Positions 28,378-62,903 of a DNA stretch of 64,000 nucleotides are shown here, piece after piece (the first letter of the stretch is position 1; each line of letters begins with the position of its first letter). The notes under the pieces are model-generated. The model had not been told where the DNA came from. It did no database searches and worked only from the letters and a program-made list of their open reading frames with translations. The stretch lies in assembly GCA_036785375.1 (NCBI GenBank), contig JAWMAR010000160.1, positions 4,278,001 through 4,342,000 on the forward strand, read 5' to 3'. The DNA comes from Leucoraja ocellata. Its lineage: Eukaryota. Position numbers and translations under genes: made by a program.

Positions 28378-28728
28378 CAGGAAAAATGTTCCCAATGTTG
28401 GGCGAGTCCAGAACCAGGGGCCACACAGTCTTAGAATAAAGGGGAGGCCATTTAAGACTGAGGTGAGAAAAAACGTTATCACCTTGAGAGTTGTGAATTT
28501 ATGTAATTCCCTGCCACAGAGGGCAGTGGAGGACAAATCACTGGGTAGATTTAAGAGAGAGTTAGATAGAGCTCTAGGGGCTAGTGGAGTCAAGGGATAT
28601 GGGGAGAAGGCAGGCACGGGTTATTGATACGGGACGATCAGCCATGATCACAATGAATGGCGGTGCTGGATCAAAGGGCTGAATGGCCTCCTCCTGCACC
28701 TATTTTCTATGTTCCTATGTTTGTATGT
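28378..28728 (+). mobile_element. CR1-type LINE 3' fragment
   Basis: HSLRIKGRPFKTEVRKN...RVVNLCNSLPQRAVE...FKRELD followed by the tail tctatgttcctatgt. Confidence 0.9.
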
Positions 28729-29153
28729 ATAGGGCAGCGACAAAATGTGAGCAGTCTTGTTGGTAAGCTTACCATTATTATCACATTTGAGGCCCATTAA
28801 GTTATTGGATATGGCTCTTGGACAGAGAGAATCAGACTTTGAACATTTGGGTAGGTAGGAGATTTGATTAGAAGAATGTGATCGGTCAAGATTTTGTGTA
28901 TGGGATGAAAAATTTTGTATGGTAACTATCTGATTGGGTTAGGGCTTGTGTTAAATTAGTCAGAAGACATTGTTATTCAACGCTTTAAGGTTGAGATAGC
29001 GTAGGTTAGTGATGGAGACAGTGGAATGGGTAGGAGATGATTAAGGCGAGGTCCAGTTGAGGACTGGGGATTGGTGTGCAATGAGGATGGCAAGGCAATG
29101 AGCCTCAGCAATCTCAGCATCGTGAGGGTTAAGAGGATGTAACTGACAGAAGA

Positions 29154-29441
29154 TAGATACAAAATGCTGGAGTAACAGCGGTACAGGCAGCATCTCTGGA
29201 GAGAAGGAAAGGGTGACGTTTCGGGTCAAGACCCTTCTTCAGTCTGAATGGGTGACGTTTTGGATCGAGACCCTTCTTCAGACTGAATGGGTGACGTTTT
29301 GGGTCAAGACCCTTCTTCAGACTGAATGGGTGACGTTTTGGATCGAGACCCTTCTTCAGACTGAATGGGTGACGTTTTGGGTCGAGACCCTTCTTCAGAC
29401 TGAATGGGTGACGTTTTGGGTCGAGACCCTTCTTCAGACTG
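29154..29441 (-). mobile_element. Penelope terminal fragment with tandem 6x39-bp hammerhead-core array
   Basis: Unit aatgggtgacgttttgggtcgagacccttcttcagactg at 29208-29441. The 13-bp TSD aactgacagaaga lies at 29141-29153 and 29442-29454. Confidence 0.9.
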
Positions 29442-30029
29442 AACTGACAGAAGACCTTCTGAATGAATACAGACCAAATAATATTTGCCCTTAACGTAAT
29501 AGAAAAGCAGGCATCACATTTCTCATTATGACAAGATAGGATATGAGCTGTCTGCATCGTTCACAGATTCAGATGTGCAAATGGAATTTGAGAGTGTGAT
29601 GTTAGTGTACATTATATACCATTTGACATATCTGCAAATACACAGGACCTCTGTGAATAAATGTCACCAACACAGGAGGACACAGAACAAATTTACCCAA
29701 CTCTGCAACAATTGCAGTAAGGAAGCAATTGGTTTTTAAAATGAATTCCTTCACCAACCACACCGAATTTTAAACGTTGAATTGTACACGTTTTACTTTC
29801 TCGGCTACAACACAAATACCATCAGACAGTCCCTTAATAATGAGCTTACAAAATTTCTCAGAGAACCTTAACCAGCAGTCGGCTTTTAGGTCCATGTATT
29901 AGGTGCTCGAAGTAACGTGATGTTAAATGTATTGAGACATGGACCGAGAAATGTGATGGTACAATAGATAAGCAATTACTTTTCTTTCAAAATTTGCTGC
30001 TGGAATGTGCATTGCGCTTATAAAAAAAA

Positions 30030-34299: not shown

Positions 34300-34990
34300 A
34301 GAGATACAGTGTGGAAACTGTGTGGAAACGTGTCTGTGCTAGCTGGCAATCACCCATACATTAGTACAATCCTACACTCTAGGGACAATTTACAGAAGCC
34401 TATTAACCCGCACATCTTTGGGATGTGGAAGGAAACTGGAGGACTCAGAGAAAATCAAATGGTCACGGGAAGAACGTACATTCTCCATACAGGTAGCACC
34501 CATGGTCAAGATTGAACCTTGGAGCTCAGAATCTTTAGACTGAAAACTGGTGTTCTAGCTGTGAATGAAATATCTTTGCTTGATTTCTGTCAGGCCTACT
34601 AAAATGTCTGATCGTATTCTCTTTTTTAACAAAATGGGTTATATAAGCCTTGACAAAATATCCATCAACTGGTACATACAAGAACGGCACAGCTTGTAAA
34701 GATGATGCCTCACTGCGCCAGAGACCCAGGTTCGCTCCTGACCTCGGGTACTGTCTGTGTAGAGTTTGCACGTTGTCCCTGCGATCGTGTGGATTTCCTC
34801 CATGTCCACAGTCTCCTCCCACATCCCAAAGATGTGAGGGTTTGTAGGTTAATTGGCCTCTGTAAAATTGCCCCAAATGTTTAACGATTGGATAAGAAAG
34901 TGGGATAACTTAGAACTAATGTTCACACGTGATTGATGGTTGGCGTAGACTCAGTGGGCCGAAACACCTATTTCCATGCTGTATCTCTAA
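34300..34990. mobile_element. Two divergently oriented V-SINEs (34300-34520 -, 34705-34990 +)
   Basis: Each has a V-domain and an LINE-like tail, in opposite orientations. Confidence 0.75.
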
Positions 34991-35962
34991 AACATTCACT
35001 ACCTGGTAGTTTTATTCATCTTAAGCACCAATTGAGGGTCTTGTCCAATCTAACCAGCTTCTAGATAGGTAACTTCAATTAAGATTCATTAATAAGAAAA
35101 AAGATCTTGCAGATGTTGGAAATCTGAAATAAAATAGCAAATGTTGGAGAAGGTCAGTGGGTCAGAAAGTGTCTTTAGAGAGAGAAAAATAATTAATATT
35201 TCAAGATGATTATTTTGCATCAGAACTGGAAAATTGAAAACAAGCAAATTTTAAGTTGCAGAGAGGAGAGAACAAAGTAAAAGTCTAGCATTTTGTGTCG
35301 ATTTTTGGAAACTAGCACTTGCACTTCCTCGTGTCTAAAATAAATGTCTGTGTGGTTGTCCAAATAGTGTTGGTGGCATCAAAGAGAGGGGAAATGAATG
35401 CTTATTATTAATCACAACTGACATCTCGGACGGAAGGAGTATAAATTGGGAGGGATGAAAAAAAGGGCAGTAGCAAAAAAAAAGAACATCTTGGAATAGT
35501 GCAATGCAGAACATAGCAGTTGCTGCAAATCTGAAATAAAAGTAACAGTGGAAATACTCTACAGATTTCTCCACTCAGGTAGTATATCTCCAGCATTTTT
35601 TTAAATTTGGGTTAAAACTACACTCATATATTTACGTATAGAAGCATAACCAAAAGTTACAAAAAGAATGTTACTGTTAGGGTGAGGGGCAGTGCAGATT
35701 GGATTGGACAACCTTGGCTGATGCAGGATATTGAGGCTCGAGTCTGGAAAAAAAAAGGAAGCCTATGCCAGGTATTGGCTGCTGGATCAAACAAATTATT
35801 CGTAGACTGAAAGGAATGAAGGAATATGATAAGGAAGGCAATCCGGAGGACGAAAAGAGGATATCACTTTGGCAGATAAGGTAAAGATGAATCCTAAAAC
35901 ATCCTATGTATATTAAGAACAAAATGATAACCAAGGAGAGCACAGATCCTCTTAAGCATTAG

Positions 35963-37538: not shown

Positions 37539-39773
37539 CCCGGTCATTAACCCAGCCTTGTACTGGATGCTTCAGGGTAGTGGGTAGTGGGCTAAACCAG
37601 CGGTGGTATCTGAAGCCCTGTTATGATAGAGCTCTAGGGGCTAGTGGAATCAAGGGATATGGGGAGAAGGCAGGCACGAGTTATTGATTGGGGACGATCA
37701 GCTATGATCACAATGAATGACGGTGCTGGCTCAAAGGGCCGAATGGCCTCCTCCTGCACCTATTTTCTATGTTACTATCTCCTCTGGATACACTAAGTAT
37801 CTCCCCTCAAGACCCATTCAAGTTCCTCCTCTGCACTCCAACTTCATCGGTGAAGTTGAGTGTGCCCAGGTTCTTCTTCTGCTTGTGTGTGGCTCTCCAG
37901 GGTTTGGGTTCAGATTCTTCCCCTCTGTCAGAAAATTCTCTCCGACCCTCCATGCTCCATTGTTGTGTTGTCTCTCTGTGACAGTCAGACTTTATTTGGC
38001 TCTGCCTTCCAATTTCCCCTGTCAGCTATGCTCCTTTGTAACTTATTTCTGCAACCACAACAAAGGCATCCGTTGGTTGGATCTTTAAAAGAGATCATTT
38101 GATAAGATCATAGCAGAGAAATTGTTTTCTAGCAGTCTTTTGTATATTATTAAGCTGTTGTTTAGATGAAAGAAATCAGAAACACTTTAAAAGCCAAAGG
38201 ATAAAAGGATAATAACAAGGCTGTAGCAAGACAGCATCAAAAATGCATCCAACATCCAGCCAGTGATAGTCTCTGAATTACCAATATGTTGCAATAGTTT
38301 TGCACAATAAGCAGGCTGTCAACCTATGAAAAGATAATCCCTCCTAATTTTAGGTCCCCCCCCCCCCTCCGAAAAGTATGGAGAACATGGATAGTTAATG
38401 TAAGAAAAAGACACAATGTGCTGGAGTAACTCAGCAGGTCAGGCAGCATCAGACTAATTAGTCTGAAGAAGGGTCCCACCCAAAACATCATCTATCCATG
38501 TTCTCCAGAGATCCATGTTCTGCCTGCCCCGCTGAGTTAATCCAGCACATTATGTCCTTTTGTGTACACCGGCATCTGTAGTTCCTTGTTTCTACTAGGT
38601 ATAAAGATATTTGCATTAACACCAAAATATCTTTCACTCTCTCTCTATCAATCCTTACACTATCAATCCTTTGTTTTTCACAGACTACAAAATCATTGAC
38701 GTTTCAAAGTTATAGAGAAGTGCAAAGTGATTGCATTATGAAATTTTACCTAACATCTAACACCTGAATCTATGACACATAATGTCATTCTGGCAATGTA
38801 TTTGCTATTGTTCTACATGATATTGTTTTCCAAAGAGTCTGACACTAAATGATGCACCAGAACAATGAGGGGTTGAGGAGTCTACTCTTGCCTCTATGTT
38901 CTTATCGTACCACCCAGCCGACACAATGCCTGACTGGGCCATTTATCTGACTCAGCGTTAGTAATGGTGAGATGTTGATGCTGGTGCACTAGATGTTGCT
39001 GAGATATTGACTGCAAATAAAATTGGCAGGATGGAAACCCCCAACTAAAACTACAGAGCCACCTACAGGATGTGTAAATTGCCCAGAGGGTTGGGCAGAA
39101 CAAAAAATGGAGAAAACCCACAAATATATTCAATTGTACCTAGACAGGTACATGGATAGGACAGGTTTGAAGACTTATGGACCAAGCGCAAGCAAATGGG
39201 ACTAGTGTAGCTGGGACATTGTTGCCCGGTGAGGGCGAGTTGGGCCGAAGGGCCTGTTTCTAAACTGTGTCACTCTATGTCTCTATGATGAGAAAAATCA
39301 GGAGATGCCAGAATGGTACATCAAAGAAGAACTTGAACCAGAGTACGTGAAATAAGAATAAGGAGGTTCAGGGGATCTAGAAAGGAGAGCTAGAGCAAAC
39401 CGTTCTTTGTCATTACAGAAATGCTGCAGCAATTATATAATTACCGTGAAACATGAACACTTTTAACATCAAAAACCCTGATAACATTACGGGGCGAATA
39501 AATTATCGAGGAAGGAAAGCAAGATTATTTTTATAAAACAACTGAATTTTTAAACCATACATCTCACTTTCCACAGTGCAGTTTGAGACTTCAATTGTCT
39601 ACAGTTAACAACCAGATGATAAATGAATCAAGAGTTTCAGGGGAAAATATAGGGCAATGCAGCAACTTGATCCAAAAGCCTCAGATACTGATTCATAACA
39701 GGGCTTCAGATACCACCGCTGGTTTAACCCACTACCCTGAAGCATCCAGTACAAGGCTGGGTTAATGACCGGG
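37539..39773. other. ~2.1-kb inversion bounded by ~80-bp inverted duplication
   Basis: 37539-37626 is the reverse complement of 39693-39773. The CR1 halves at 37625-37772 (+) and 39774-39903 (-) are contiguous in the intact copy at 28433-28720. Confidence 0.8.
38408..38597. mobile_element. Inverted Penelope terminal-repeat pair
   Basis: gacacaatgtgctggagtaactcagc...gtctgaagaagggtcccacccaaaacatc...gctgagttaatccagcacatt. A similar structure lies at 7474-7660. Confidence 0.75.
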
Positions 39774-40409: not shown

Positions 40410-40705
40410 GCCCACAGTTTAAGAATAAGGGGTAAGCCATTTAGAACGGAGATGAGGAAAAACTTTTTCCCACCTAGGGTTGTGAATCTGTGGAATTCTC
40501 TGCCTCAGAAGGCAGTGGAGGCCAATTCTCTGGATGCTTTCAAGAGAGTTAGATAGAGCTCTCAAAGATAGTGGAGTCAGGGGATATGTGGAGAAGGCAG
40601 TAACGTGGTACTGAGTGTGGATGATCAGCCATGATCACTGTGAATGGTGGTGCTAGCTCGAAGGGCTGAATGGCCTACTCCTGCACCTATTGCCTATTGT
40701 CTATT
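40410..40705 (+). mobile_element. CR1-type LINE 3' fragment
   Basis: HSLRIRGKPFRTEMRKNFFPPRVVNLWNSLPQKAVEANSLDAFKR followed by the tail ctattgtctatt. Confidence 0.9.
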
Positions 40706-43700
40706 ATATCCTTATATCCTATTATAACCAACTGCAAACATAACCCATTATTTTCCAGCTTCTTCCAGTGATGAACGGTCTGACAGAAGATGACACTATT
40801 TCTTGTGGACCCAAATATTTTTATATCTCATTCCTTCAACAAACTTTTAAAACTTACATTGATATTGAAGTCACCATCTTGCATTTTATCCTGCTTATTT
40901 TAACTTTGTCAAGGCAGTTCAGGAAAATTCCAAAATTGTATGAGAATTTGTATGCTGTACATTTCTGGCAGCTGTGTTTCTGCTCTGATTTAATGATGGA
41001 AATTCAGCAAGATTATCCATTGAACGTCAGAGCCACACAAGCACTTTAAGCAGCTGAGCCATTCTGTATGGTGATATAGGATTGATTATTTGACAGTTTT
41101 AATTTGTTGAATGCCTAATAATATTTTACAGTGCATTTCAGATCAGTTTGTCATATTAATCTTTAGGCCCACTGACCATTTCAAAAGCTTTTCACTGTAC
41201 CTCGGTAGACATGACTCTAATAAACTGAAGTAATGGTGTTCCTCTAAATATGATGAATTAGTGGCAAATGGGTACACACTGTTGCCCTCCCTTGTGATCT
41301 TCGTGGGTAGCATGGTGGGAGAGCTGTATGCTAGAATTGAGTTGTTTTTTAATTTAATTTCTCACCTCAAAAAACCACCGATACATGTGGACATCAACAT
41401 TCCAGTCAACTGAACAGCGGAGGACGTCGCAGATGAACCAATCTAGTCCTTTCTTTCCTTCTCCCACCCTGCATGACCATCATCAACCAACACTCCATGC
41501 TCAGCATAAACTACAATCATTGAACTATGAGCAGTAACAGCTGTGGCAATTTTCTGCTATCTCTGACTCGAGCATCCCATTTAAAAGAGATGTGTTGCCT
41601 GACCCGCTGAGTTACTCCAGCATTTTGTGCCTATCTTTGGTATAAACAAGCATCCGCAGTTTCTTTTAATTTCATAACACAGTTTAGTTCAGTGTGGTGG
41701 CTGGAAGAAATGTAAAATAACCTAAATTTAAATAGCTGGGAGGGGGTGGGAGATGGCAGGGGGAGATAAGTGGTTGGAGGAGCTGGAAAGAAACATTTAA
41801 AAAAAATCTGCTATTGTATATGAAAAAGTAAAAGAAAACATATGCAGAATTTAGCTAGAAAGAAAAGAGGTGGGGAAAAAATATCAAAAGAGCCACAGAA
41901 AGCAGTTAAATAAGATATGTGCAAGGGATATTAAAATTAACATAAGAGCTACATGATTGTATTCCGTAAAAAGTGGTGGTCGGGCGTATGCCAGGAGACG
42001 TTACAAAACTGCAATAAACGATATAACCGTAAATGTGCAATAGAGCACAGTCAAAAGAATTGATTCCCAGCTTCCAAATAATATATACCTCCTTAGAGAC
42101 AAAACAAAAGCATCAGGAAAAGAGGTTGTATCCGTGGCTATGAAGCGGTTAAAGATGGTGTCGGATAAAAGAGAGTGTTTAATGCTGCCAATTGAACAGC
42201 TGGAGGATTTGGAAAATAATCATAATCAAATAATCATAATTCAGCAAAGGAGGATAAGGGAATGTAAAGCAGAATAAAACAATGGGCTACAAACTTAAAA
42301 GCGTACAGTGAAAGCTTATAGAGGTAATTCCAAAGAAAATGATTAGCGAATGTTCAATGGTCCTTTATTGTCACGTATACAGAGAAATTTGAGTTACAAT
42401 ACAGTCATACCAAAAGAGCAACAAGATACAAAACCACATAAGGATTAAACATAAACAGCCAACACAGTGGTGTGTGAGAATCGCCAAGGCACACTGCATA
42501 AGCAGAGACCCACAGGCATCAGTTCAATGTCCAGGTTACACACACGCTCCTTCACCGTGATGTGACCAGAGTCGGCGACTTCACATTCCTCACTGTGATG
42601 GATGGCGAATAACTTTTACCTCCTTCCTCCTTTTCCCCCGCGGTCGGGCGATCGAAATTCCCGCAGTCGGCGATTGAAGCTCCTTCAATGTGGTGATCGA
42701 CATTACCGCGGTCAGGGCGGTCAAAGCTCCTGCGGTTAGAGATTAGAACAGCAGAATTTACATTGGGTAATAAGGAAATCACAAGGACATTTTCCCCTGC
42801 CCATGGCATCGAGAACTGGGGGTCCAGTCATAAAACAATGGGTTGGCCCTCAGAACTGGGATGAGAAGAAATGTCTTCAAATCTTTGGAATTAACTGCCC
42901 CAAAGAGTTGTGGAAGATAAGTTGCAGAATATATTCAAGAAGAACATCAATACATTTTTAGATCTCAAAGGATTCAAGAAAATTGAGATGAGTGCAGGAA
43001 AATGGTGATTGATCCAATAAATCTTGTTGTCGGCCAAACAATTTCAAAGCAATTTCAATTTTAAATGTTCCTAGGAGTGTAATAGAAATGTGTTATATTC
43101 CGACAATTGCTTGTAGCATTTGGCTGCTCACTGACTGGTCGGCATTCGCGGTATTGTTTCTGCCTGGACTTGCTCCTTCGACCCAGGGAAACCAATGTAC
43201 GTGAATTTTGTATCCTCCATAGCTGAACTCTCACAGGTTTTATCAGACCTTCACTCACGTCAATGTATGTTACCAAGGATAGAACGTTGACTGTGGAAGA
43301 TCATTATTGGCAAAGCTACACTAGCTCGCCATTTTAATCTAGTTTGTTTAAAGCTAGTGGGGGAAGTACAGATAACTCGTGAATTAAGGAAATGTATTCC
43401 CACGTTTCTGTAAAACTGTGTTTAGCTGATATGTTGTGTGGAGCAGAAAACAGTCCTTGAGATGGGGAATGTGAAAAGTTGTAATAGACTAAGTAATGCA
43501 GTATTTATTTATTGGCTCAATGTATACAGATGCCTGGAGTTTCCTAAAAATGTGGGATGCATTATACTGATTGTCTACTAAGCTGAACAATACTTGTAAA
43601 TGTTCCCTCTTCATAGTCCATCTGTATCCAGTGCAATACTTGCCCATGATGTTACGCGATCAGTACTTCATTCATGGTTATACATCTGCATTATCTTAAC

Positions 43701-45359: not shown

Positions 45360-47299
45360 GTAAGCAAGTATCTAGCTGAGTGGTGTGTGTCAACTGAGTT
45401 GCGATTGTTTACCTTTTCCACATCAGGAAGCAAGCCTTTAAATACTCAAGCTAGCATTGAATTTTTAGACCAGTTATGCAAGGAATCTTTTCAAAATAAT
45501 TTAGAATAACTTTAGAATTACATTCTAACTTTGACACCGAACTAGTCAATCTCACCTGTCATTGAATACATGTCATTGAATGACTGACTCCTAATTAAAA
45601 ACACATATTGATATGACTGAACTGTTTACAATATCTTGCTGTACATTTCAGTCAGTGCTTAATGATGAAATGTACCAAAACTGAGAAGCTAGTTGTCATA
45701 CAAATTCTTCTCTGAATGGGAGTCGATGATAAGTGGTTGTTTGTGAAAGTTTCCTGAACTTGTAATACATCGCAAACTGAAACGTAATGTACAAACTCTT
45801 TGTTTTTATAAATTATATACATTGCCCTGGTGTACTGATTGTATCTAGAATATATTTTACTCATTTACTTACAATAATTCCTTTTTTACCGTTAAATCGG
45901 TTACAATGATTGTTGAGTTGAGTGCATCATTGTAAATGAACAATTGCATAAGAAATGGTTTGATTAGAATTTCCGCGTACTGAATAGGTGCTAATTTTTT
46001 TGCTAATGCTAATTTGGAACCCTTCAAAAAAATGTATGGTTTAAGAAATTATTTTTATAATTTACTCCCTTTTAAGAGATCTGGGTGTCTCACATAGACT
46101 CTACTTGCTGAGAGAACAACAGCAATGTCATTTGTGTGCTGGCGGTGCTGGCTCGAGGGGCCAAATGGCCTACCCCTGCACCTATTGTCTATTGTCTATA
46201 GTCTGACTTTGGGAAATTGGTCAGCACGATATATACTGACATATTGAAGCTGCCAAGGAGATGACGTCAAACTGTGACGTTGGGTAGTCGGTATATGATG
46301 GGAAGGGGGAATCGCAAAGGAATTGTGTGGGAGGGGATGATGGCATGTAGTCTACTTGGGATCCCTCACCTCTCCTTCCGACGACAGAACAGGCCACTTA
46401 CACCGCACGACTGTAGATGTCTCCACACCCGTTTAATTTGGCTTAGAGAAGCTTTGATACATACCTAGAGCTCACAGCAACAGGGCACCGTGAATAAATG
46501 TAACAAAGGGTGATATTCAGCACAGATATTACATCCCGGGGGGGATAATTTAAGACTCCGCCATCAACAATTTTAGCATAATGTACCTCTTGTTGAAATG
46601 CAAATGAATTATACAAATCTTAAGAAGTGAGCTTTTGATCCACTTTATGTGAATGAGTAATGAATAACTGCGCTGCTTGTTAATGATAACACTTGCGACT
46701 GGCAAATGATGTCACCATCATGGTGAATTGTGACAAGAAATGTCTTATCCAATTTCCCATTGGGCAAGAATTCAAACGTGTCAAAAAGCATGTCTTATGT
46801 ATTATTTACGCCTCTTCTCCCAATCCAATTTCTAGGCTGAAAGAGTGTAGTGTTGTCTTGCCACATAATGTCCTCATTAAACAGATTGGTTGTGCAACTT
46901 GTATTAATAAGTATTCACTGCGACTCTTCTCCCCCCCCCCCCTCCACCCCCTGTGCCCAGCCCCTAGTCCACCAACAACTCCCATTTGTTTGTTATATAT
47001 CCTCTAATTTTCCTTTGCCACTTCCAATCTTCCCTGCCTAGACTGAGATAGATAGATACTTGATTAGTACGGGTGTCGGTTATGGGGAAAAGGCAGGAGA
47101 ATGAGGTTCGGAGGGAGAGATAGATCAACCATGATTGAATGGCACAGTAAACGATGGGCCAAATGGCCTAATTCTGCTCCTATCACATGACCTAGACCAC
47201 AAAACTGAATTAAGAAAAATAACTTTTCCTGTATTCCTTAATGGGTCATTGCTGCCACCACAGATTAGGATCCAATAAACTAAGCTACTTACAATGTTT

Positions 47300-47511
47300 A
47301 AGAAAGAACTGCAGTTGCTGGAAAAATCAAATGGAGACAGAAATGCTGGAGAAACTCAGCGGGTGAGGCAGCATCCATAGAGTGAAGGAATAGGTGATGT
47401 TTCGGGTCGAGACCCTCCTTCAGAAGAAAGGTCTCGACCCGAAACGTCACCTATTCCTTCGCTGCATAGATGCTGCCTCACCTGCTGAGTTTCTCCAGCA
47501 TTTATGTCTAC
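47300..47511. mobile_element. Near-perfect inverted Penelope terminal-repeat pair (~85-bp arms)
   Basis: agacagaaatgctggagaaactcagc...gagaccc is followed directly by ggtctcgacccgaaacgtcacc...ttctccagcatttatgtct. Confidence 0.85.
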
Positions 47512-47897
47512 CTAAGTTACTCACAACCTCGCCTCAAAAACTCCACCACAGCCTCACCTTCAAAGTACCATTCTCTATACTTTAAAAATGCCTCTAAAAT
47601 TACATTTTTGTTCCTTCGCCTTTGGAAATCTCTTTGAATCTATCCTATCATTGCCCTTTTTCTTTCTGTTACTCAGTAAATTGATTTTCTGAGGCTTCTG
47701 TATAGGACCTTTATCTGATGATATGACTGTGAGAAGAATGATTATATAATCCAATCCGCAGTGTGGAGGATTTTCTTGGAGGAGTATCATTTGGATTTAT
47801 TCTGTGAACTGTAATACTAAACAAGTGCTAACAGATGGCTTATCGTACGGAGGTTGGGTGTGAGTGAATCCCACACCTTCTCAGCAGCAGCACCAAG

Positions 47898-52890: not shown

Positions 52891-55355
52891 CAGTTTCAAT
52901 TTTGATCATTGATAAAGTGCTTAAAAACAAGGAAAAATCAGAGCATTTCAATGAACAGTGGCTTTGGGTTGCCCTGCAAGGAATTGTCTGCACAGCCCAT
53001 TTCATTGTGCTTCAATGCTTCCTGCTTCTTCTCTGCAGGGAGAAGTTATGAATTCCAGGCAAGGCTTGAATTCCAGGCAAGTTATGAATTCCAGGCAAGG
53101 CTTGTTTGTGCCAAGGTCACTATTATTTTCATGATTCTTAAAACCTTACCTGTTTATCTGGTCACTTCAAGTGAACCTGGCGAACTTGAGATTTCTCACC
53201 TCTCAATTCAGAATAATCTATTTTGGGTCTCAAAGTAGTTGCCTCAAGAGAGTCGTGTGTTTTGTCTTTGTATAAACTTCTCAGCAATTTCCAATGAGGT
53301 TTAACAATATTGAAAGTCAGTTCATGACATTTCAGCCACCCAGCATTGAGGGCAGCAATACTGACTCACTATTTACAATGCACAGTCTCTGATGGCATTT
53401 ACTAGGCTGCATATATGGAATTTGAAGAGGTGTGCCGACCCAAAACATCACCTATCCATAAGCCGCAGCATTTGGACAGCCAAGCAAATTTGGGTCTTTC
53501 TGGAGAAAAGAAATAGGTGACAATTCAGGTCGTGATTCTTCTTCGGACTGAGACCCCCAGCAGAGTCTTCTCTATCAGTTGAGTACCATCATGGGAAGAC
53601 CACAGACAGTGATTCTGGGAAAGAGTCGTGAAATGGTAGAGACTAAGCTAACAGTAACTAGTCCAAGCATGGCAACATATCTTACAGCACAGGAATGAAC
53701 AATCCACTGAATCTGGTCTATGTTGGCAGTTATGTTGCAAGTGAACCTTCTCTTTCAGTCTTTATGTATCCTCTCGTCAAAATGGTTTTCTGTTCATTTA
53801 TCACTCACATTCTTTGACGTACAGCATGGAAAGAGGCCCTAAGGCCCAACTTACCATGCCCCACCTACACTAGTACCACCTGCCTGCGTTTGGCCCATAT
53901 CCCACTAAAGCTTTCCTATCCATGTGCCTGTCCAATTCATCTGTGCTGTTCAGATCAGTCACACATGCTTGCAAGGTCGACATCACCAAGCGTGAAGTTT
54001 TTCCAAATTCCACATTAGATTTAGTATTGACTGTCTTGTATTTCAAACACTTCATTTTGGATTTTCCCGTGTGGAATCGTATATTCTTTCAATATTTATG
54101 AGCAAAACCTTTTGTAAATTTAAATCCCACTGTTTTCCTTGTTTCTATTTAGAAGAGCTTCAGCCTGTTTGGGGTCTGTCTTATCAGTTATATCCTCTGT
54201 GCTGGTATCATCATTTTAATAAATAATGTTATCCCTCCCACACTTGTACCTTCCCTGTTGACTTGTCAGTTTGTTGAATGTTCCTGTTGAGTGATACAGT
54301 GCGCATCGTCTGAATACAGAAATGCGGTGTTTTTGCCTTCTAACGTTGAAGCCATTATTCGCTGCTAGTTGCTCTATTCCTCTGCTGCATTCCACTAGGA
54401 TTCTATTTTCTATCATCTAGTTGTGCTGCTCCAAGATGTTAACAAAGAAAAAATAATTTGTACTTACAATGTGATACGACTTTCGAGTTGGCTCTAGGAA
54501 CATGATATATTCAATTATTTTGAATTGCAAACTTTCTTTTATGTGGGCAAGTCTCAGTTGCCACACAATCTATTTGTGTTTGGGCGGGCAGCTTCCTTTT
54601 CAGTTGTGAATGAAACGGTGCAGCTAACTTGTGCCTAGCAAGCTCCCAGAAACCACTACAATTTGGTCATCTGTTCTGACACTGTTGAACAAAGCATAAG
54701 TACAGGTTGTCTAAGAAGCACATGAAAGATTGGATCTTATGTTATGGTTGTACAAGACGTTGGCGAGTTTCAGTTTTGGTCACCCTGCTACAGGAGGGAT
54801 GCCATTAAGCTGTGAAGATCGCAACTATACATAATTGAAACAGCAGCATCGTGCTTTTTACAGCATGTTAAAAATAAGATGACATACCGGATTATATGCT
54901 CCCTAACTAAGTACTGTGAAATATCAGGCTAGATTCAAGTAGAGGACTGTTTCGGGGACTACTAGGGGAATTAATCTGGCACTTGATAACGGATTCAGAT
55001 TATCATAAACTTTTTTAATTTGATTTTCTAGAACTCGTAAATTGAACATTCAGCTTCTGGTTGGGTTTTTACAAATATTCTGTGTATCCACTTCTTTAAG
55101 CTTGAAACGGTCCTGCATTACTTGTGGAATGGGAGAGCATTGCAAATGGTCAAGTTACGTACATGCGAAATAGAAAAACAAGTCCGCAGGGCATCGGCAA
55201 CCATGTTGTTACTAAAATTACTCATTGCCAAAACAAAAATAAGTTGTCCATTTTTGGAGAGCTTCAGCATAAAGAAGCTCTCTCTTGCAATATGTATTTG
55301 TACAGATAATTTGGATTGCACCTTTAAAATAGGACAAAGGAGATTAATGTAATCT

Positions 55356-55502
55356 GACGAAGGTCAGTCTGAAGAAGGGTCTCGACCCGAAACGTCACCT
55401 ATTCCTTCTCTCCAGAGATGCTGCCTGTCCCAATGAGTTATAATGCAGCATTTTGTGCCTATCTTCGGTTTAAACCAGCATTTGCAGTTCCTTCCTACAC
55501 AT
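55356..55502 (+). mobile_element. Penelope terminal fragment with intact minimal hammerhead core
   Basis: CTGAAGA(55369)-A-GGGT-CTCG-ACCC-GAAAC-GTC(55396). Flanking repeat tgtaatct at 55348 and 55503. Confidence 0.8.
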
Positions 55503-56544
55503 TGTAATCTTCTTCACTGACCACTGAATGTTCAAGTTTTGCAAGATCATTAATTATCTCTTTTAATGTCATAAACACCCATTGTTTTATAAAAGTCATA
55601 ACCAACCATCATACTAGTTCCTCTTAGATCATTGTTGCTCAACTATAAACTTCATTGCCTGAGTACTTCTGTCTTGATTTCCCACGGTGTAAAATATTTA
55701 TGCCCTTTCTTTAATAATCTTTTTAATATCGCCTTTCCAGTGCAATCAATTCTCAACATTATAGTGTAGGGATACTACATTTACTGGGAGAGTTTCATGA
55801 GCTTGTGAATCTTTCAGTTCGGTATTGCAAATGTATTTTTTGGTTAACTGTATGCCTTGCCAAACAGCTGCAGGAACTCATGTCAGGAATCACCAAGAAG
55901 GGCTACAATGCCATGCATGTCGCTCTGTTGCAGTTGGTGCTCTGCATGTTGCTCCATTGCAGCTAGTGCCATGTAAGAGCTTGTTTTGCTTCAGTCCAAT
56001 TGCACATGCACAGAGTGACATTAAGGCCCAGGGAAGAGAACCTTGTATTTACATCATATCTTCCCTGGTTTCAGGCTGTCCAAAATGAGTAATGGATGCT
56101 GAAGTTTTACATGGATAAGAAAGGTTTGGCGCGAGATGGGCAAGTGGGACTAGCTTGGTAAGGCAACATGGTCACCACGGATAGGTTGGGCCGAATGGCC
56201 CATTTCCATGCAGTATACCTCCTATGTACCAGTAATTCAGTGGCATCTGTTGTAACAGTCCGACTGTATCACATTTGCACTATAGGAATAGGCTTTAGTG
56301 TGCCCTAAACATCCTCATCTATTCAGGAATTTGCCTGTGTTTGGATTACATTGAAAATCAATCAATGTACCATTGTCCCTTCAGCTACTATACAGTGTTG
56401 CGGTATTGGGCCTTGTTTTACAAACCATTGAAGGTGATGACAAGTAGAAATTAATATTCTTAACCATTTCTACTTTACCACCAAACATATCGTAAAATTT
56501 GTACCTATTGTTTATACTCCAATAGAGGTTAGAACTAGACGGAG

Positions 56545-57559: not shown

Positions 57560-57840
57560 TTCAGATGTTATCAGGCAACTGAATAGTCCTCTTATCAGCT
57601 CGAGTGCAGCCCTGACCTCCCACCAACCTCATGGGAAACCTTTGAGCTATCTTTAATCGAACTTTCTCGCACATTCAATATTATACCTTTCCTTAAATGT
57701 TATAACCTTTATCCATTTTCTGTGCACTGCAGACGGCTTGATTGTATTCATGTATGGTGTTTTCTTTGACTGGATTGCACGCAAACAAAAGCTTTTCACT
57801 GTACCTCGGTACACGTGACAATAATTAACTAAACTAAACT
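57560..57840 (+). mobile_element. Rex1-like 3' UTR/tail repeat
   Basis: Tail gcttttcactgtacctcggtacacgtgacaataa-(actaa)n. The same family occurs at 63420-63845. Confidence 0.65.
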
Positions 57841-58519
57841 AATCTTTCACGACCAGAATTAATAATGATGCTGCCTTTTCATTCTGTACATTTTCCCTCT
57901 AACCAGATACCTCAGCCCCATTTTCTCTGGTGAATGCTCCTACCTTCCCAGTAAGGTTGCATTTAAATTGCACTTAGTGCCTTGCTAGTGTTGCTGACTA
58001 CCAGCTGGCAGCAATGCCAGAATTGTCTTGCGATGTGTACTCAGTGTTTATAACAGCAGCTGATATATCTATTTCATGCATATTTGCAGTTGAAAATGGG
58101 AGGACCAGGAAATTTCACAAAGTACTTTGTAGAAACATCAAAATGGGGCTAGGATTTGCTTCTGGGAGATGTCTCAGGGGAGTGAGCAGAAGAAGTTCAA
58201 TTGTGGTTGAATCTCCATAATCCCCGGTCCTTGCTGTTTTGTGACTATCTTCTGCTCCGTAGCACAGCCATCACTTTTCTCCTGTGGCTTAACTATTAAA
58301 AAAAGATAAGTTATGCAATGTTTGTAGAGCAGAACCCAACAGCATGGTTCCACCTTCAGTGGTAGCGCGGGGAATGCTTTTACTTCCCGTTTCATAGGAC
58401 TGGAAACAAAAAAGCAAACACACTGTAGAAAGGAGAATCAAATGAAATATAAAATGAAATTCTTCTCAAGATAGAATAATCCATGCCCTAAACATTGATT
58501 ATATTAATCATTACGTTGT

Positions 58520-58826
58520 AGTATAACAGCTGATAGAGCTGCTGCCTCACAGTACCCTGGTTTAATTCTGACCTCGGGTGCTGTCTGTGTGGAATTTGCA
58601 TGAACTTTCTGGGACCACATGGGTTTCCTCCGGGTGCTGCGGTTTTCTCCCACATCTCTCAAACATCGCGTGGGTTTATATGTTAATTGGCGTCTGCAAA
58701 TCGCCCCCCCCGATGTGTAGAGAGTATGTGTGAAGGTGACCTAACATAGAACTGCTGTGAACAGGCAATCGATGGTCAGCATGGTCTCTGAGCCACAGGG
58801 CTTATTTCCATTGCCATATCTTTCAA
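58520..58826 (+). mobile_element. V-SINE
   Basis: gagctgctgcctcacag...ctgacctcgggtgctgtctgtgtggaatttgca. Confidence 0.75.
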
Positions 58827-58884
58827 TCAAAAAGTATGACAATCACATTGAGTGAACTGGAGTGAAAGATAGTTCATGAATGGC

Positions 58885-62841: not shown

Positions 62842-62903
62842 TGAAAGATTACTTAGAGAAAGCAAGAGAGGAATTCTTACAGAAATGGGAGTCCCCATCA
62901 CAG
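62842..62903 (+). CDS. PRKACB: PKA catalytic subunit common exon 2 (A-helix); PRKACA vs PRKACB not resolved
   Basis: ttttattgcag|62 nt|gtaagt, phase 1 to 0. Encodes (V/M)KDYLEKAREEFLQKWESPSQ, compared with human Calpha [21 protein letters not shown] (14/21 identical). Confidence 0.93.

Follow-up and report, generated by a model that had tools for sequence, protein, structure and literature searches.

The hammerhead-bearing repeat described here is very probably the pLTR end of an autonomous Neptune-type Penelope-like element (PLE), and the copy at 55364-55500 a short, likely abortive and inert insertion of it, whose hammerhead is predicted not to fold for cutting unaided. This copy lies in a 64,000-nt stretch of Leucoraja ocellata DNA (assembly GCA_036785375.1, contig JAWMAR010000160.1, 4,278,001-4,342,000, forward strand), referred to below as the window.

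Re-reading the sequence gave the same minimal hammerhead (min-HHR) layout, extra A and predicted cut as a preliminary description of this DNA, with CTGAAGA at 55369-55375, the extra A at 55376, GGGT(CTCG)ACCC at 55377-55388, GAAAC at 55389-55393, GTC at 55394-55396 and the cut after 55396. Numbering the motif from the first core base, C3, as 0 places this cut between +27 and +28. The repeat proper, of about 140 bases (-5 to +131), is preceded by an 8-nt junction insert (55356-55363) and flanked on the + strand by an 8-bp TSD, TGTAATCT, at 55348-55355 and 55503-55510, the left one being 11 bp in the duplicate locus L002. It opens on the + strand with TCAGTCT (55364-55370), which forms the 5' edge, also reads as a 3' splice-site-like CAG, and has a putative function discussed below. 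The minimal type I core (55369-55396, +; CUGAAGA, extra A, 4-bp stem II, GAAAC-GUC with palindromic ACGU) is followed by the pLTR body (55397-55462, +), which extends to a first class of 3' ends at about +93 and contains a CCUUC tract predicted to pair with the core in an inactive fold, and then by the PLE 'tail' of about 37 nt (55463-55500, +), which extends to a second class at about +130. A junction micro-inversion (55354-55367, +) forms a 5-bp hairpin that, in this copy, sequesters stem I's 5' strand; the copy is likely a dead insertion, now inert.

Set against the published descriptor, the motif at 55369-55396 has a CUGANGA box and then one extra base ahead of stem II, a stem II of 4 bp with a 4-nt loop (descriptor: 3-7 bp opened by G10.1-C11.1, loop 3-10 nt), GAAANNUH with a palindromic 15.2-16.2 (GAAACGUC), and a pLTR location in a PLE. 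The one departure is stem I, for which the descriptor specifies at least 3 bp but which measures only 2 bp both in this copy and in 14 out of 20 intact cores, the 2-bp form being present in all four subfamilies. The earlier assignment to PLE-type minimal type I hammerheads is thus upheld apart from stem I, whose weakness had itself been pointed out. Since PLE hammerheads with a 2-bp stem I are published for D. virilis and Oikopleura (PMC4209133), the motif files, by its sequence, as this published variant. An Rfam search with the motif returned no hammerhead match at the gathering threshold or at E<=10. Two further candidates were considered and dropped: an older family with a longer stem I, for which 28 GACTG matches proved to be a selection artefact of the pattern (an unbiased pattern also gives a 2-bp stem), and an N7=U variant (2,470 matches), which did not form a separate family among the matches listed.

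The copy is likely intronic in a PKA catalytic gene. RNA depth, splice signals and a protein match place a host exon at 62842-62903 (+), corresponding to residues 16-36 of the cAMP-dependent protein kinase (PKA) catalytic subunit, and downstream exons confirm this identity. Upstream of the exon, sparse unique reads are on the same strand in stranded runs, and copy and exon both lie on the + strand, in agreement with the claim that the insertion is sense to the host transcript. A Pfam search of 131 window ORFs found no host exon, and exon 1 of the gene was sought and not located. First exons of three other + strand genes further upstream (L113:718-950, and at distances of 40 kb and 11.4 kb from the window) are presumably COLGALT-, TECR- and ASF1-like, and with such neighbours the host would be a PRKACA-type locus.

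Searches of the window recovered 30 related pieces with the 55364 copy as nhmmer query and 35 (13 on the + and 22 on the - strand, five of the latter forming one array) with a family HMM, more than the roughly 20 counted earlier. The intact core plus stem II is kept in only two of them, at 55369 (+) and 29242 (-), and a loose core pattern is in modest excess (17 occurrences against 7.5 expected, with 2 of 100 shuffles reaching 17). On the minus strand, a hammerhead-part array (29136-29445) consists of five 39-nt head-to-tail repeats without G12 (29246-29445) and then a tailless copy; RNA reads show many 21-44-nt back-steps around +37 to +41, and taken together, array and back-steps suggest that the family commonly carries micro-tandems of the motif. 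Three head-to-head pairs, with no single strand, lie at 96-315 (one tailless and one tailed arm), 47295-47518 (one tailed and one tailless arm, joined at the core palindrome) and 38405-38590 (subfamily C). Other repeats in the window (28424-28726, 40413-40712, 34680-34994, 58526-58829 and 57626-57845) are, we presume, CR1-like 3' ends, a SINE of tRNA type and a short element that terminates in (TAAAC)n. This contig region is duplicated at an offset of about 224-229 kb (L002; L111-L115 vs L126-L130) with 97-99% identity, as a segmental or haplotype duplication, and elsewhere, too, many search matches occur as pairs.

Genome-wide, the full min-HHR pattern occurs 90,901 times and its reversed control not at all. 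Short copies, here called stubs, gave 151-170 matches in a spread-out 400-kb sample, which extrapolates to 1.3-1.5 million, or less once duplicated assembly segments are discounted; in round terms the genome has roughly one million stubs. Both counts bear out the massive amplification proposed in the preliminary description. A young DIRS-like family (about 97% alike, 2,792 candidates; L172-L195, e.g. G000:C89:2040980-2044210), which we take to be DIRS-like from its RT/RNase H-like translation, has a single tailless stub of subfamily B as its fixed passenger. At L094 a Neptune copy sits inside such an element, and its apparent 5' end, considered as a PLE 5' end, turned out to be the DIRS-like host element.

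Copies that extend upstream of the repeat lead to its parent. They run into a GIY-YIG C-terminus that lies some 100-240 nt ahead of the core (e.g. L030), and a ladder of 5' truncations in longer copies continues from GIY-YIG into the RT. Intact elements hold a single 1221-aa ORF, RT first and GIY-YIG at the C-terminus, with DKG, YIDD and a CX2-5CxxC linker; relatives of this protein carry RVT_1 and GIY-YIG, and the named proteins closest to it come from sharks and rays. The elements stand in 3,946-bp head-to-tail tandem arrays in which the repeat is found some 120 nt past the stop codon of the GIY-YIG domain and 164 nt before the ATG of the next ORF. Young copies are 98-99% alike, and the family looks to have been active recently. 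Intact arrays are found at L339 (G000:C300:1138800-1148799) and L340, where the ORFs contain a long proline-rich repeat region. Tandem and partial-tandem pLTRs, an inverted 5' copy and a one-sided tail are all present, and a CX2-5CxxC linker before the endonuclease marks Neptune or Nematis (PMC8557442). By its sequence motifs, on which alone the clade is set (the linker fitting Neptune or Nematis), the element is a Neptune-type EN+ PLE. Three main subfamilies differ by about 9, 11 and 17-20% from their own consensus, and there is an older fourth; the core is common to all of them, whereas the UTR upstream of it is freely variable in both length and sequence, and conservation begins at TCAG.

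End statistics of the stubs refer to 296 deduplicated copies, the first 46 kb of a neighbouring stretch having been dropped as a duplicate. At the 3' side, ends fall at +83 to +99 in 145 of the 296 copies and at +120 to +130 in 109, two classes about 37 nt apart that, in this analysis, define the PLE tail. Six of 30 copies chosen for containing the ORF start (L221, L229, L231, L237, L242 and L248) begin at +83 to +94, the tailless 3' end site, and would therefore be unit-length copies flanked by tail, resembling in this the 34-bp repeats of Drosophila Penelope (PMC2377424). TSDs surround 19 of 161 solo copies (4.5 in the control). Neighbouring copies are arranged head-to-head in 129 of 348 cases versus 42 tail-to-tail, and among 49 head-to-head pairs, 41 join a tailed to a tailless arm, eight join two tailless arms and none joins two tailed arms (p=5e-7). 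Both arms belong to one subfamily in 45 of the 49, and a TSD encloses the whole pair in 18 (0.8 in the control). Junctions often fall on palindromes (core, stem II, ACGT), as expected if two same-sense cDNAs anneal. The arms share more non-consensus bases than random copies do (1.9% vs 0.55%), which fits finer subfamilies and also short source copies. An inverted copy with a one-sided tail is a published PLE layout (PMC8557442) that is here counted.

At the 5' side, 119 of 296 ends fall at -5 to +2, whereas only 11 fall at +26 to +30, around the predicted cut, where the background is 1.9 per nt and there is thus no peak; the stub template was therefore uncut RNA, as in the anole assay. Tailless (71/156) and tailed (40/112) stubs have this 5' edge in common, which indicates that it is fixed by position rather than by length. 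Once copies reach +21, 193 of 225 stop within -5 to +21. The ends are scattered across about 8 nt, a shoulder extending to +21, and microhomology blurs such HMM and local-alignment ends. In RNA reads of stubs, homology breaks off most often at -3, -2 and -1. Long copies behave differently: after setting aside three chimeric copies of one locus (L239-L241) from the 30 ORF-start copies, 17 of 19 that cross the motif continue into the upstream UTR (17 of 20 with the chimeric locus), compared with four of 41 short subfamily-B copies, the other 37 stopping at the front edge (p=2e-9, the 19 long copies including several tandem or duplicate loci). Only one of the 30 (L238) begins at the edge itself, and a plain start-site model predicts more.

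The template thus likely has its 5' end at about -3, at an initiator-like TCAGT. TCAGTCT at 55364 fits what we take to be the initiator consensus, YYANWYY, with +1 at 55366 (-3), and an ACGT lies near +27 to +30 from this putative +1. In this placement it resembles the internal promoter of Drosophila Penelope, which has an ACGT-containing downstream element (PMC2377424). Reads containing the ORF start are sense-biased, dropping downstream, in two of three cDNA runs (X14 and X17; X15 is the exception). No pile of molecule starts at -3 was seen in the RNA reads, whose libraries are fragmented, and the frequency of a cap-derived extra G at -4 (22%) gave no signal over background. As for an intron that might end at the splice-site-like CAG, no conserved donor was apparent by eye, and no such joint occurred among the 15 of 106 listed. 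A UCAG precedes the core by a few bases in about six of about 24 alignment rows visible in PMC4209133 (fugu, Tetraodon, Xenopus 1, Trimeresurus, Ixodes 2 and Nasonia), and there is a weak hint that an initiator-like motif before the hammerhead is wider than the skate family.

These end positions suggest a mechanism. The element protein would nick the target and begin reverse transcription internally at one of two sites, as the protein of the anole element does in vitro. Given an mRNA whose start is likely the initiator-like TCAGT, three bases ahead of the core, the RT would copy about 95 or 133 nt, run off the RNA 5' end and leave a stub, while a template with upstream sequence would allow it to continue into the ORF and give the rare long copies. 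Were both target strands primed, each would probably use a different site, yielding a head-to-head pair with one tailed arm. We tentatively propose, at somewhat less than even confidence, that stubs are in this way the PLE equivalent of integrated strong-stop DNA, with core and internal promoter overlapping, priming at about 95 and 133 nt from the cap, run-off as the usual outcome and dimers that use each site once.

Two other accounts of the stubs were weighed. The RT might instead stall at a folded or dimerised hammerhead on a long template, the motif itself thus causing the flood of stubs. The 5' ends do cover core and stem II (the 193 of 225 stopping at -5 to +21), and inversion junctions are often at palindromes of the core, stem II or ACGT; however, long copies mostly pass the motif, which makes a structural roadblock unlikely, and the hammerhead fold is predicted to be rare. 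Alternatively, stubs with promoter-like and priming signals might be transcribed and re-inserted by the Neptune protein, propagating themselves as a SINE-like or retrozyme-like family, close to the 'non-autonomous family' of the preliminary description. About 98% of matches do lack ORF sequence (seven of 367 extend more than 100 nt upstream, this count and the totals of that survey still including the duplicate 46 kb), stub length is uniform, the repeat is abundant in RNA, the arms of pairs share non-consensus bases, and retrozymes are described as pLTR derivatives (10.64898/2026.07.22.740005). Yet every tail type examined also occurs fused to the upstream GIY-YIG ORF, including that of the 55364 copy (in L088 and L089), within an ORF-linked sample that is biased; the intact 1221-aa elements bear the same repeat, and the subfamily consensus sequences equal the pLTRs of long elements. 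In stranded runs the RNA of stubs derives from both strands, like passive read-through, and among 141 cores there are no fixed-period whole-unit arrays, the 39-nt array being the only one. That array is also the only repeated spacing found, in place of the head-to-tail 150-400-nt units, each with a hammerhead, that characterise non-LTR retrozymes. Self-propagation thus appears more improbable still than stalling, the non-autonomous family is unsupported, and the best reading of the stubs is as abortive insertions of the autonomous element.

Whether the motif is still a ribozyme is a separate matter. In the predicted folds of the 55364 copy, a young B copy and a long A copy, the same alternative hairpin pairs the core purines with the downstream CCUUC, stem I has a probability below 0.001 and stem II at most 0.17, and an active dimer lies at least 15 kcal/mol above the minimum, energies that ignore tertiary and protein contacts. 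The doubt expressed earlier about activity agrees with this predicted inactive fold, and cutting by the lone 55364 copy is highly improbable. Eight RNA runs show no accumulation of read ends at the cut site, an insensitive test on raw reads chosen by species label, from which single-cell strand bias was left out (priming artefacts, unclear mate). For full elements we are slightly inclined towards a working ribozyme that is assisted: if it acts at all, it would do so in full-element transcripts, as a dimer or with protein help, and published min-HHRs cut poorly or only with protein (PMC4209133, PMC11167929). A vestigial hammerhead, with stem I below the working minimum and its bases kept as promoter (initiator plus downstream ACGT at about +27 to +30) or protein-binding signals, is a lesser but serious possibility. 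It would account for the 2-bp stem I in 14 of 20 intact cores and all four subfamilies, and the Drosophila Penelope internal promoter offers a precedent in its downstream ACGT (PMC2377424). Against it, the 12 invariant bases of the core, the added base, G10.1-C11.1 and the palindrome all persist across four subfamilies with freely differing upstream UTRs; PLE hammerheads with 2-bp stems have been published (PMC4209133), and the anole motif needs protein in order to cut (PMC11167929).

Sequence change between subfamilies bears on the same choice. Subfamilies A, B and C have five differences in the 35-nt motif against 30 in the 101 nt downstream (p=0.08), so that core conservation is not significantly above that of the rest. 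The proposed check of core conservation between subfamilies is therefore only weakly positive: the core is unchanged in all four subfamilies, but other blocks are equally invariant. All five motif changes are tolerated and none is two-sided; two are alternative CpG-decay products of one ancestral state, which explains the apparent compatible changes and is in keeping with a vestigial motif. A lower core mismatch in single copies (4.5% vs 7.7%) was rejected as a sign of selection, being biased by alignment ascertainment.

Both the kind of motif and the class of element are already known, and the value of the present case lies in the stub population. The min-HHRs of metazoan PLE pLTRs described by Cervera and de la Pena (2014, PMC4209133) have the same CUGANGA plus extra base, G10.1-C11.1 and GAAAN-palindrome-NUH without loop III, the same place in the pLTR and thousands of dispersed single copies from truncated PLEs; the skate motif differs in its stem I of 2 bp (descriptor minimum 3), has a stem II of 4 bp, and is about ten times as numerous as the 9,000 reported there for Xenopus. 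The terms 'shark', 'skate', 'Callorhinchus' and 'Leucoraja' are absent from the portions of its supplement searched, and our literature search found no description of this PLE family in cartilaginous fish. Neptune-clade EN+ PLEs (Craig et al. 2021, PMC8557442) share the order of RT, CX2-5CxxC linker and GIY-YIG as well as 5' truncation, partial tandems, an inverted 5' copy and a one-sided 30-40-bp tail, all four of which occur here, whereas the extreme excess of 95-135-nt stubs with one 5' edge sets the skate apart. In the green anole Poseidon element PAc (Frangieh et al. 2024, PMC11167929), two internal priming sites likewise define the tail, both target strands are primed, the template is uncut RNA and no read ends lie at the cut site; PAc, however, belongs to another clade and its ORF starts inside the hammerhead, while the skate ORF lies 164 nt behind it and is known from sequence. 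Non-LTR retrozymes (PMC7229834; 10.64898/2026.07.22.740005) share the type I hammerhead and pLTR origin, but the skate repeat has no whole-unit tandem arrays and a minimal rather than canonical ribozyme, and retrozyme-like circular RNA is not part of the skate data; the second of these sources also covers retrozyme families of one chondrichthyan, among which this repeat may already figure.

To this the present analysis adds the second-passage test, the finding of zero double-tailed pairs, the CpG account of apparent covariation and the departure of stem I from the descriptor. The role of the PLE hammerhead and the origin of the tail and of inverted ends are open questions in the literature (PMC4209133, PMC8557442, PMC11167929), for which this genome offers young intact tandems together with about a million end products that follow countable rules, namely the absence of double-tailed pairs, the lack of starts at the cut site, and stopping at the edge of the motif on first passage only. 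About 90,000 intact-looking cores are tolerated, many of them in introns, in keeping with a motif that on its own does not cut. If the strong-stop proposal is true, the fossil stubs, a million in number, would preserve a record of where transcription starts and of both priming sites in an active vertebrate Neptune element, and the intact units of 3,946 bp would provide a system for direct tests of PLE transposition and of the role of its hammerhead.
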